A stretch of 30,062 nucleotides of DNA. Origin: Patescibacteria group bacterium. GTDB taxonomy: Bacteria > Patescibacteriota > JACMRA01. Shown piece after piece: positions 1 to 24,451 of the stretch (positions within the stretch are counted from its first letter, which is position 1; each line of letters starts with the position of its first letter). The stretch spans positions 3,290 to 33,351 of the forward strand of contig JAOZKL010000001.1 in NCBI GenBank assembly GCA_029935375.1, written 5' to 3'. The position numbers were made by a program, and so were the translations under genes. A model generated the notes under the pieces. It did no database searches and was not told where the DNA came from. It worked only from the letters and a program-made list of their open reading frames with translations.

Positions 1-723
1 TGAGAGTAAGATATTTAGAGTAGGGTGTGTGCTTAGATGATTATAGTCATCTAAAATTTGCAATATTGCTGTTCTGGAATTTTGATTTGGCTTTGCAGAA
101 TACTCTAACACTTTTGTTTGTTGAGAAATAAATTCCTTTTTAAGTTTTATAGCTATATTTTTCATGACTTTTTGTTCAGGTACTATAATTAAAATATATT
201 CTGATTTTTTGTTTTGATTATTAATCTCCTGAGACTTTGAAATAGAACTTCGTATAATATACTTTATACGAAACCAAATGTCTTTTTCAAGAAAGAAGTT
301 TACACTTTTAGTATTTTGCTTGATTTTGTTTTTGACCTCATCTTCAACCACTTCGCTTTGCTTGTTTGTAATATTATTTTTCCCACTGTTTTTTTTAGAA
401 ATTTGTTTCCAGTATTTTTCTGCAATTATTTCAAAAGCTTGCAACGATGCTTTGTATGTGCTATTTATAGAATTAAAAGTGTTATATCCAAAAAAATCCA
501 AAAATTTTAAGTGATTAAGTGGCTCTGTAATTGGATATATTCTAGATACCTCCTTTGTCTTATAGCTTGGCTTTTCTTTTTGTATACTTCGTATAACACC
601 TAAAACAGGTCTATTTCTCAATGGGACTTCAACCATAGTCCCTACTCTAATATTTTCATTAGATGAATATACAAGATATGGCACTGGTAAGGTTTTTGTT
701 AAAATTACGTTATAGAAGTACAT
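1..723 (-). CDS. priA: PriA N-terminal half (3'-DNA-binding domain plus degenerate helicase lobe 1); partial, runs off the left edge
   Basis: Not in the ORF track. Hand translation from ATG 723 gives 241 open codons. YLVYSS..IRVGTMVEVPLRNRPVLGVI matches the PriA 3'BD, and ILIIVPEQ matches motif Ia (LVPE). No Walker A precedes Ia. The ATG overlaps the upstream stop (TAATG). Confidence 0.8.
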   Translation of the reverse strand, partial: MYFYNVILTKTLPVPYLVYSSNENIRVGTMVEVPLRNRPVLGVIRSIQKEKPSYKTKEVSRIYPITEPLNHLKFLDFFGYNTFNSINSTYKASLQAFEIIAEKYWKQISKKNSGKNNITNKQSEVVEDEVKNKIKQNTKSVNFFLEKDIWFRIKYIIRSSISKSQEINNQNKKSEYILIIVPEQKVMKNIAIKLKKEFISQQTKVLEYSAKPNQNSRTAILQILDDYNHLSTHPTLNILLS

Positions 724-1247
724 TATCTAGACTTTATCTTTTTTGGAGCTATTATATAGCTTTCTATTAGATAGTATAAATAGAAGGTTACAGCATAGTT
801 AAGTGGTAGCATAATCATAAGTAATAAAAAATCATTTACTGTCAGATAATGATTGCTTTTAATATCAGATATTGTACTTGTTAGTGAAAATATGAATGGA
901 GACTCAGCAACTAGAAAAGCTGCGATTATTAACCAGTAACTCAGAACCTTTAATTTTGGAAGTATAAAATATATTAAAAAAAGAGTGCCAAGAAAACCAC
1001 TCAATATCAACATATTAGCCTCTATTATATAATTTACTACCGTTAGTATAGGTCTTCTAGTTACATCTTGATACAACACTTCACTACCATCCACTAGGTA
1101 ACTACTTAGAATGAAGGAGTTGTTTGGATCATGGCCAACAAATCTATATATTATAACAGATAACCAACTAGCTACTATTATGAAATATAATAGGAAAAAA
1201 TAGGCTCCATATTTTCTGTTCTTCTTTTTATACTCGTCTTGGTGCAT
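723..1247 (-). CDS. Hypothetical membrane protein, about 4 TM segments
   Basis: 174-aa ORF with four hydrophobic stretches; its stop overlaps the priA-N start. No family recognised. Confidence 0.75.
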   Translation of the reverse strand: MHQDEYKKKNRKYGAYFFLLYFIIVASWLSVIIYRFVGHDPNNSFILSSYLVDGSEVLYQDVTRRPILTVVNYIIEANMLILSGFLGTLFLIYFILPKLKVLSYWLIIAAFLVAESPFIFSLTSTISDIKSNHYLTVNDFLLLMIMLPLNYAVTFYLYYLIESYIIAPKKIKSR

Positions 1248-1306
1248 GAAAATTATTTATTACTTTACAAAAACACTAAAGTATATATTTATGAAATGGT
1301 CAAGTT

Positions 1307-2269
1307 ATGAAAGTTTTATTTGTCTATCCCCGTAAAGGTTTGTTTCAACTCACACAATGTAGTGAATGTCGTTATATATCTAAATGTCATTATTGTGATA
1401 CGAATTTGACGACATATCGTAAAAATACTAATAGTTTAGAGTTGATTTGTCATCAATGCCAATCGTATTACAGTTATCCTATTAAATGTCCTGAATGTGG
1501 AGCTTTGGACTCTGTATCATCAGCTTTTGGAGGTATAGAGGAGTTGGTAGAGTCTCTACAGAAGCATTTACAAGTTAAAGTTAAGCGCCTTGATCGCAAC
1601 AAATCCAAAAAAGATTCCAATTTGGAAAAAGCCTTATTAAATTCTGCAATATATAATGCATATAGTGGTGAAATATCCGTAACTACTAGAATATTCGATC
1701 CTTCTATACCCTACTCCGTCTTTGATAAAATAATCTTTGTACAAGCAGAAAACTTATTAGCGTCTCCAGACTATCTTGTACAAGAAGATATTATTGGTGG
1801 AGTGTTTCACCTTATAAACTCCATAGATAAAGATAAAACTGAGATGATTTTTGATAGTTCTGTAAAGATTGATATATTGGAAGAATTAGCTAGAAATCCA
1901 GACGCAGGTATTGAAAATTGGTATTATAATTTTTTAGAGAGTGAGTTGGATAACAGAAAAATATTTGGTTTTCCGCCATATACTAATATGTTGTTGCTTA
2001 CCTCTCAACAGAATTCTAAAGAAAAAGCTTGGAATATGATAAAAGCTGCTCAAAAAGATCTAACAAAATCTATTTCTAAATTTGAAGGTATAAAAATAAT
2101 AGATCCCTACCCGGCACGTTTTTTAAAAAGAAAAAATAAATATTCGTATCATCTGTTGATAAAATTTCCTAGAAAATATAAGGAATTTGCAAAGTTTCGT
2201 GATATTATTTTGCAAACTTCTGGAGTTTATGGTCTGCAATCTAGATTAAATCCAAAACATTTATTCTGA
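1307..2269 (+). CDS. priA: PriA C-terminal half (motif IV, Zn-binding Cys-rich region, helicase lobe 2, CTD)
   Basis: VLFVYPRKG matches motif IV (NRRG). Four CxxC pairs: CSEC, CHYC, CHQC, CPEC. RKIFGFPPY and DPYPA..KRKNKYSYHLLIK match the PriA CTD. Confidence 0.9.
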   Translation: MKVLFVYPRKGLFQLTQCSECRYISKCHYCDTNLTTYRKNTNSLELICHQCQSYYSYPIKCPECGALDSVSSAFGGIEELVESLQKHLQVKVKRLDRNKSKKDSNLEKALLNSAIYNAYSGEISVTTRIFDPSIPYSVFDKIIFVQAENLLASPDYLVQEDIIGGVFHLINSIDKDKTEMIFDSSVKIDILEELARNPDAGIENWYYNFLESELDNRKIFGFPPYTNMLLLTSQQNSKEKAWNMIKAAQKDLTKSISKFEGIKIIDPYPARFLKRKNKYSYHLLIKFPRKYKEFAKFRDIILQTSGVYGLQSRLNPKHLF

Positions 2270-23213: not shown

Positions 23214-23242
23214 TTGTCAAAAATAATGATTGATGCTATACT
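23214..23242 (+). promoter_or_regulatory. sigma70-type promoter with extended -10
   Basis: TTGTCA-17 nt-TATACT with TG at the extended -10 position (TGcTATACT). Confidence 0.65.
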
Positions 23243-23261
23243 TTGATTATAATTATTTTTT

Positions 23262-23513
23262 ATGCAGGTTATAATTGATTCATTAACTATATCAAGTTTA
23301 ATATTTTTTAATATTTTTTGTTTAATTGGAATTTTCACCCTAGTTGTTATAGTAAAAGTCTTGAAAAATATGAAAAGGAAAACTGATGACACCATAGATA
23401 CTGTCAATGGCGTGCTATATAATATACATGAGTCTATTGATAAAATTAATAAAAATCGTTTTTTAACAGATATTCTTGGATCTGTAATAAAAATGTTTGG
23501 TGGTCGGCGTTAG
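23262..23513 (+). CDS. Small membrane-anchored protein (TM plus amphipathic helix, DUF948-like)
   Basis: 83 aa; N-terminal TM then helical KRKTDDTIDTVNGV; has its own promoter. Confidence 0.55.
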   Translation: MQVIIDSLTISSLIFFNIFCLIGIFTLVVIVKVLKNMKRKTDDTIDTVNGVLYNIHESIDKINKNRFLTDILGSVIKMFGGRR

Positions 23514-24451
23514 AATAGTGTATTTTCATCCTCATTATAACCGAGAGAGATTGTTTGTTTTATCAATGAGTTAAAATTGTATTTTTTAAGTAATTCTACT
23601 CCACCTGAAAGGTCAAATTTTGAATTTTGCAAGTTAATATCAGAAATATTTTGTAATCGGGCTAGTTTGTAAGTTTGTTTGATCTGTTCTGAGTTATCTA
23701 GTATTTTTTGGATTGTTTTTTCATTTTTTGGATTGTTTAGAAAAGCTGTGTTATTAATATTAACTCCTTCTGATATACTTTCATGTTCTATATCTAAGAC
23801 TCTAAATAAGTTTTTTAGTCCTCCTGTACTATTTAGTATTTTTGCAGCTGTTTTTGGCCCAATACCGTTTACTCCTACAAGATTATCTGATTTATCCCCA
23901 ACAAGAGCTTTATAATCTACAAAAATCAATGGATCTATTTCAAATTTTTCAATAAAGTTTGTTTTATCAAATAGAAAATAGTCTTTAATTATTTTATTTT
24001 GTCTTACAAAGAAAATATTGTCTTTTATTAATAATTGGTACAAGTCCTGATCTGCAGAAAATATAATATGCTCATCTTCTGTTTTACTATCAATATTAGG
24101 CAGTCCTGCGCTAATGGTTGCGATTATATCATCCGCTTCAAAACCAGGCGATGTAAAAACATTGTTAGTTATCCTATTGCACCAATCAATTATCATTGGT
24201 ATCTGAGTTTTCATATCTTCTTCCATCGGAGTTCTTCCAGCCTTATAATCTTTAAACATCTTATGTCTCCATGTTGGTTCTCTTGTGTCCATTGCAAATA
24301 TTAACTCATCCGGAGACCAATTCTTTATCAGAGCTATTACAGTTCTTGCAAAACCAAAAAAAGCTCCAACTGGCTGTTTATTAAATATCAATTTATTAGA
24401 AAAATAAGATCTGTATATTAAATATGAAGTATCTATGATTAATGTTCTCAT
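23510..24451 (-). CDS. Standalone 5'-3' exonuclease / flap endonuclease (PolA N-terminal domain family)
   Basis: LIIDTSYLIYRSYF, FAMD, WRHKMFKDYKAGR, GFEADDII, SADQDLYQL, H3TH motif LVGDKSDNLVGVNGIGPKTA. No polymerase domain follows. Confidence 0.93.
   Translation of the reverse strand: MRTLIIDTSYLIYRSYFSNKLIFNKQPVGAFFGFARTVIALIKNWSPDELIFAMDTREPTWRHKMFKDYKAGRTPMEEDMKTQIPMIIDWCNRITNNVFTSPGFEADDIIATISAGLPNIDSKTEDEHIIFSADQDLYQLLIKDNIFFVRQNKIIKDYFLFDKTNFIEKFEIDPLIFVDYKALVGDKSDNLVGVNGIGPKTAAKILNSTGGLKNLFRVLDIEHESISEGVNINNTAFLNNPKNEKTIQKILDNSEQIKQTYKLARLQNISDINLQNSKFDLSGGVELLKKYNFNSLIKQTISLGYNEDENTLF

Follow-up and report, generated by a model that had tools for sequence, protein, structure and literature searches.

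Probable old fissions of core information-processing genes in a small class-level lineage of Patescibacteria

Can a bacterium maintain several of its essential information-processing enzymes as separately encoded chains, in the manner of the archaeon Nanoarchaeum equitans, or are half-genes in a metagenomic draft to be put down to accidents of assembly and to decay? The question is raised by a stretch of 30,062 nucleotides (‘the window’; C66:3290–33351, with a 10-N scaffold gap at both flanks) in the draft genome of a Patescibacteria group bacterium (G000; assembly GCA_029935375.1, contig JAOZKL010000001.1), in which the gene for PriA is in two pieces and that for alanyl-tRNA synthetase (AlaRS) is a half-gene. 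An earlier note, made from the letters of the window, had suggested that this lineage assembles essential enzymes from separate chains as Nanoarchaeum does, and the suggestion is borne out both genome-wide, where LigA, LepA and UvrC join the list, and lineage-wide, in relatives. The reading put forward here, in which we have good confidence, is one of old and real gene fissions that went to fixation in a small lineage of Patescibacteria, of class rank, using the standard genetic code, with the pieces being translated separately and reassembled non-covalently.

The genome amounts to 910 kb in 121 contigs, is 85% complete and has a G+C content of ~32%. Its class is represented in the genome collection (GTDB) by 27 species genomes from two families only, and the records of these relatives carry a variety of submitters' labels: SR1, Gracilibacteria, Saccharibacteria or just ‘Patescibacteria group’. 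By Pfam the open reading frames (ORFs) of the window are ordinary housekeeping genes, densely packed, and among them there are zero matches to transposase families, as the earlier note had remarked.

With AlaRS, the C half that lies in the window (Table 1) matches positions 277–589 of the 595 in the short AlaRS family NF002436, at 264 bits. The catalytic half is inside another contig, in the middle of its 10.5 kb (C94:3407–4324); it covers positions 1–259 of PF01411 with 243.9 bits and carries class II motifs 1–3. These two are the only AlaRS matches in the genome and they do not form one polypeptide, the break at Pfam position ~260 coinciding with the end of the catalytic domain. The same break is common to 26 of the 27 genomes of the class, the exception being G005, where AlaRS is a single frame of 647 amino acids, and in several genera the C half is cut again near position 375 to give three pieces. 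Neither half has the look of a relic: mean column identity across 11 genera is 69% for AlaRS-N and 61% for AlaRS-C, and the termini are conserved. The arrangement just upstream of the C half, an rpmE terminator hairpin and then TTGACA, looks like the start of an independent, probably leaderless, transcription unit.

Might the pieces have gone their separate ways? AlaRS-C could then be an AlaX-like trans-editing factor and AlaRS-N could charge tRNA alone, with the two PriA pieces acting independently of each other. This we regard as unlikely. AlaRS-C does score 75 bits against the AlaXM editing family (whose cut-off is 300), the AlaRS-alpha subunit of N. equitans by itself charges minihelices without G3:U70 specificity (PMC11392972), and the PriA lobes no longer need a common ATP site. 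However, AlaRS-C keeps the entire tRNA-recognition domain, which begins exactly where AlaRS-N ends, it fits the short AlaRS family far better than AlaX, and the genome has no second AlaRS; in LigA the active-site motifs are divided between two chains, neither of which would work alone. A model of the AlaRS-N/AlaRS-C complex points in the same direction. Its score of 0.87 (0.00 for the best control) is a mark reached by 58 of 80 solved complexes and by 2 of 110 mismatched pairs, its runs have at least 77% of contacts in common with partner pLDDT (predicted local distance difference test) values of at least 78, and the modelled interface is made up by the cut ends themselves.

Is AlaRS a singular case? 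A genome-wide scan of the kind that the earlier note had proposed looked for reference proteins covered by at least two non-overlapping ORFs of G000, the unsplit references coming from the complete Patescibacteria genomes G022 and G026, and seven apparent splits were discarded as their halves were cut by contig ends. Besides AlaRS, it returned LepA and UvrC in two ORFs each and LigA in three (Table 1), plus an adjacent pair for ValRS. In the reverse control, a comparison of G000 proteins with G026, there were 0 clear splits; G026 against G022, in both directions, yielded 1–2 that were mostly adjacent. LigA is cut inside the adenylation (nucleotidyl-transferase) domain, with PF01653 positions 18–164 in one piece and 170–253 in the next, and again inside the HhH domain. 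Its piece 1 has KLDG and piece 2 has motifs IV and V together with the 4-Cys zinc finger, and over the three ORFs all of the features are present: the KxDG lysine, motifs III–V, the OB fold, the 4-Cys finger, HhH and BRCT. The proposal that breaks occur at domain boundaries is therefore apt for AlaRS, cut where its catalytic domain ends, and is contradicted by LigA.

Two further candidates were set aside. ValRS (G000:C49:4476–7412) is a 986-codon frame with one in-frame TAG, the next ATG following 63 nt on, and it is uninterrupted in G007 and G016. The TAG may mark an incipient fission, or it may be due to a recent nonsense mutation or to a sequence error; being a single frame that is unbroken in some relatives, ValRS is not counted as a fission. 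Nor is RpsA (ribosomal protein S1; G000:C63:9442–10618), whose two neighbouring ORFs overlap and share their contig with an N gap.

That the splits as a whole arose artefactually when the metagenome was assembled, binned or scaffolded, or that they are decaying pseudogenes, strikes us as very improbable. It is true that the genome is a 121-contig draft, that there are N gaps on either side of the window, one falling within PriA-N, and that the single interruptions of ValRS and RpsA could be errors. Against this, in all five main cases (AlaRS, LigA, LepA, UvrC and PriA) the pieces are interior to contigs. Complementary halves exist and the breakpoints lie away from assembly joins, two of the matters on which the earlier note had staked its claim; the sole nearby join is inside PriA-N, at a distance from the PriA break, and is bridged in frame. 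Up to 26 further species genomes, contributed by many studies and including a closed chromosome, show these breaks too, and ORFs of 140–400 codons remain open at this G+C content with their motifs kept. An alternative genetic code was also considered and rejected, since the long genes stay unmerged when TGA, TAG or TAA is read as sense; the code is the standard one (table 11), and 43 of 513 long ORFs terminate in TGA.

Six-frame hidden Markov model (HMM) matches were used to count the pieces in relatives. LigA is in at least three pieces in all 19 sampled genomes of the class, and in four in G006, G009, G011 and G014. LepA is likewise split in 19 of 19, with three pieces in G006, G009 and G011. 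For UvrC the two-piece form was counted in 15 of the 19, and the gene is unsplit in G004, G007 and G012. The extra breaks in some genera indicate that the process of fission is ongoing. Distances of 29 to ~560 kb separate the pieces in G017, whose 1.27-Mb chromosome is closed. A sample of 143 Patescibacteria genomes from ~80 families outside the class gave LigA as a single chain in ~105 and no detected LigA in ~34; in this sample no split with both pieces contig-interior was found, and the few apparent splits are at contig ends. (The sample included one unpublished genome, G169, on which no claim is based.) Despite being closed, G017 has a completeness score of only 86%, and the completeness of the lineage is probably underestimated because split marker genes drop below HMM cut-offs. 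Frames of ~416 amino acids resembling BipA/TypA, which elsewhere has 614–636, are present in G001:C16, G017:C1:721284–722465 and G018:C6:8184–9380, and may be another split.

How a gene comes to be in pieces is best followed with PriA. In this genome it is in two pieces, as had been noticed at the outset, and these are complementary ORFs on opposite strands: they cover TIGR00595 positions 18–195 and 204–481 with zero overlap, and in alignment they abut exactly, just ahead of the first strand of RecA lobe 2. PriA-N begins at window position 723 on the minus strand and runs past the window start into the 10-N gap (C66:3280–3289), beyond which in-frame PriA-like sequence continues to a stop at C66:2942, making 356 codons in translation; a contig from run X2 spans the gap and has 9 more letters there, which preserves the frame. 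The 3′ DNA-binding domain at the N-terminus is recognized by PF17764 at 27.5 bits (cut-off 22.7), PF18074 matches PriA-C at 43.5 bits, and the eight cysteines of PriA-C are invariant among three genera. Domain order and the 8-Cys zinc region are thus those of canonical PriA, the replication-restart helicase. What differs, besides there being two chains, is the state of the ATPase motifs, all of which are degenerate in comparison with canonical PriAs of the Candidate Phyla Radiation (CPR): there is no GKT (Walker A), LEEA stands in place of DEEH, and GRxGR (motif VI) is absent. The pieces fall below the TIGR00595 cut-off, at 111.6 and 28 bits versus 230. Between them is an ORF of 174 codons (orf174) for which Pfam gave zero matches, and a strict sigma-70 consensus scan of the spacer separating it from priA-C had zero matches within that spacer. 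The junction of orf174 and priA-C is bridged only by contigs of X1 and X2, which come from one sample, probably the source; those of X3 and X4, from different samples, do not cover it.

In relatives, the PriA break is at the same position in nearly all of the 18 genomes of the family. Only the sister family has PriA unsplit: in G019 it is one ORF of 808 amino acids, already without Walker A, DEEH and motif VI, and the alignment reveals a ~100-amino acid insert at the future break. In several genera PriA-N and PriA-C adjoin on one strand, the extreme being G004 where the halves are parted only by an in-frame TAA with an ATG following at once. Other genera have 0.8–1.9 kb of unrelated, genus-specific cargo between the halves, such as a PIN/Phd toxin–antitoxin pair (L139:4164–4836), a TerD protein (L132:4190–4795) or, elsewhere, unknowns, and in still other genera the pieces are on different contigs. 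Read from these sequences, the motor, that is the ATPase motifs, was lost before PriA was split, and the order of events is motor loss, growth of a linker, fission in place and then dispersal.

In relatives, cargo has come to settle in the gap that the fission opened. A mobile element shared between the PriA halves was ruled out, as the cargo varies by genus and there is no homing endonuclease. The notion that inversions drive the splitting has to be given up: with the halves adjacent on one strand in relatives, the inversion in this genome is secondary and not the cause of the split. The divergent layout here would be the outcome of a single post-split inversion of [orf174 + priA-N]. The ends of the inverted segment showed only weak AT-rich pairs as inverted repeats, and no synteny of orf174 or other PriA neighbours with relatives was found.

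Could the pieces be rejoined, by split inteins, RNA trans-splicing or programmed read-through, so that single chains are made after all? That possibility has its attractions when just one in-frame stop parts the PriA halves of G004 and interrupts ValRS in this genome, and split inteins do rejoin split genes, those for cyanobacterial DnaE and N. equitans PolB being examples. It nevertheless seems to us most improbable. The ends of the pieces are flush with uninterrupted homologues, with no unaligned tails of 30–100 amino acids and no intein-sized additions. The pieces have conserved start regions of their own, the promoter-like site of alaS-C is insulated by a terminator, and pieces differ in strand and can be as much as 560 kb from each other. 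With intein-sized additions lacking, non-covalent reassembly is the simplest reading.

Starting a new gene may demand little in this lineage. Motifs resembling Shine-Dalgarno (SD) sequences precede 26 of 592 genes genome-wide, and TTGACA has a peak 36–40 nt upstream of start codons (52 of 592 genes), a position which suggests that many mRNAs are leaderless. Initiation that is SD-free and often leaderless probably eased fission, as a promoter and an ATG would suffice for a new gene start.

The course of events envisaged has three steps. One gene would become two adjacent ORFs through the arrival of a stop codon with a new ATG behind it, the gap between them would take in unrelated genes, and rearrangements would scatter the pieces. 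Once translated separately, these would reassemble without a covalent link: AlaRS as a catalytic chain plus a chain for tRNA recognition and editing; LigA as three chains, the active site being common to chains 1 and 2; LepA as a G domain chain and one comprising the remainder; and UvrC as a GIY-YIG chain with an RNase-H-like nuclease chain. PriA, its ATPase motifs having been lost prior to the split, would be a two-chain zinc- and DNA-binding scaffold devoid of motor activity.

Several considerations weigh against this scheme. The AlaRS complex model may owe its pass to solved single-chain AlaRS structures, whether through likeness to them or through the predictor's memory of them. Work cited in PMC11392972 has E. 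coli AlaRS fragments of <442 residues failing to charge tRNA, and so AlaRS activity in the present case would hinge wholly on reassembly. To speak of a ‘working enzyme’ in the usual sense is inapplicable to PriA, judging by the disappearance of the motifs that define enzymatic activity. The counts for relatives derive from draft genomes and not from curated gene models. Finally, the unsplit AlaRS of G005 and the unsplit UvrC of G004, G007 and G012 imply either re-fusion, replacement or several independent fissions.

The 5′ nuclease encoded in the window has a different history. It does stand alone, as first described, and is the sole such gene in the assembly, where no DNA_pol_A domain was matched (the assembly being 85% complete). 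The earlier note had ranked it as the weakest example of fission, and as an example of fission it is withdrawn. Among relatives PolA is fused to its nuclease (G002, G012), nuclease-less (538–614 amino acids) or not found. In a tree the stand-alone nucleases of the class form one clade (support 100/99), separate from PolA-linked nuclease domains; G002 and G012 hold both a stand-alone nuclease and a full-length PolA, whose own nuclease domains are outside that clade, and derivation by PolA fission was ruled out on these grounds. On this phylogeny the protein is a long-standing paralogue of the PolA nuclease domain, in a class where, to go by the gene contents, PolA has lost its own nuclease domain or has itself been lost. 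A separate gene of ~300 amino acids with both exonuclease domains is familiar from E. coli Xni/ExoIX and the B. subtilis-type 5′–3′ exonucleases, and coexistence with PolA in some genomes is another trait shared with stand-alone bacterial flap endonucleases. Unlike those, the nuclease here has as its best match the N-terminus of PolA (201 bits), is below the cut-offs of all curated stand-alone families and is in an assembly in which no polymerase I domain was found.

Table 1. Positions of the gene pieces and associated features (window coordinates unless a contig is given)
Feature	Position	Strand	Content or basis
PriA N piece	1..723	-	3′ DNA-binding domain, winged helix, start of RecA lobe 1
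orf174, 174 amino acids	723..1247	-	no known family; start-stop coupled to PriA-N; between the PriA pieces
Divergent intergenic region, orf174/PriA-C, 59 bp	1248..1306	.	position between two ORFs
PriA C piece, 320 amino acids	1307..2269	+	RecA lobe 2, dead motif VI, 8-Cys zinc region, PriA C-terminal domain
AlaRS C half	18004..18999	-	tRNA-recognition domain and editing domain with HxxxH, CxxxH; PF01411 268–453 and tRNA_SAD
rpmE terminator hairpin (19064–19047), then TTGACA (19034–19029)	19029..19064	-	TTGACA 30 nt before alaS-C ATG
FEN-type 5′ nuclease, stand-alone, 313 amino acids	23510..24451	-	PF02739 and PF01367 (both 5′–3′ exonuclease domains)
LigA, three pieces on three contigs	C107:16982–17797; C79:825–1760; C82:1192–1617		split scan
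LepA, two pieces	G domain C18:5358–5927; rest C52:3458–4675		split scan
UvrC, two pieces	C13:2211–3209; C49:2864–3919		split scan

Some observations on the remainder of the window may be added. LysRS (10928–13396, minus strand) has 822 amino acids, including an N-terminal extension of ~190 and a C-terminal DUF2000 (PF09391, 65.7 bits), and the genome therefore holds a fusion besides its fissions. Window positions 17000–20000 are present almost whole in two runs of one hydrothermal-vent metagenome sample, and contigs 95–99% alike occur in a marine-sediment metagenome from a different study; no RNA data set was listed as containing these positions.

How close is the parallel with N. equitans? 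Both organisms have a tiny genome in which the halves of several information-processing enzymes, including AlaRS, are encoded by unlinked genes; specific charging by the N. equitans AlaRS needs both subunits (PMC11392972; PMC3655853). The differences are that one is an archaeon and the other a bacterium, that the set of split genes is another one (here LigA, LepA, UvrC and PriA), and that up to four pieces are found here. Furthermore, the equivalent of N. equitans AlaRS-alpha is E. coli 368N (PMC11392972), whereas the break here is at ~260, only the second break (~375) of relatives with a three-piece AlaRS being near the E. coli-368 equivalent; the main break is therefore an independent fission. 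In the literature on split or fissioned genes, no description was found for CPR, Patescibacteria or Gracilibacteria, in contrast to Nanoarchaeota and other DPANN, for which split genes were found. What is new is the co-occurrence of split PriA, AlaRS, LigA, LepA and UvrC as one class-wide syndrome, with a genome-wide count and controls. A bolder proposition, to which we give somewhat less than even credence, is that a one-way fragmentation ratchet acts on the core machinery of the class, giving two to four chains to an enzyme and spreading even active sites over unlinked genes, that it is enabled by leaderless SD-free initiation, under which nearly any ATG downstream of a promoter could start a gene, and that ‘genes in pieces’ were reached independently of Nanoarchaeota for the same reasons of population genetics and mode of initiation.

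With this lineage bacteria have their own equivalent of the split genes known from Nanoarchaeum, and in its dozens of genomes a gene can be seen unsplit, with its pieces adjacent, with cargo filling the gap, dispersed and split again, so that a comparative study of how essential genes break yet stay functional is possible. It also provides natural split sites, tested by selection, in AlaRS, in LepA, in UvrC and, inside the adenylation domain, in LigA. And the loss of the PriA motor ahead of the breakage bears on what the task of PriA is in minimal cells.

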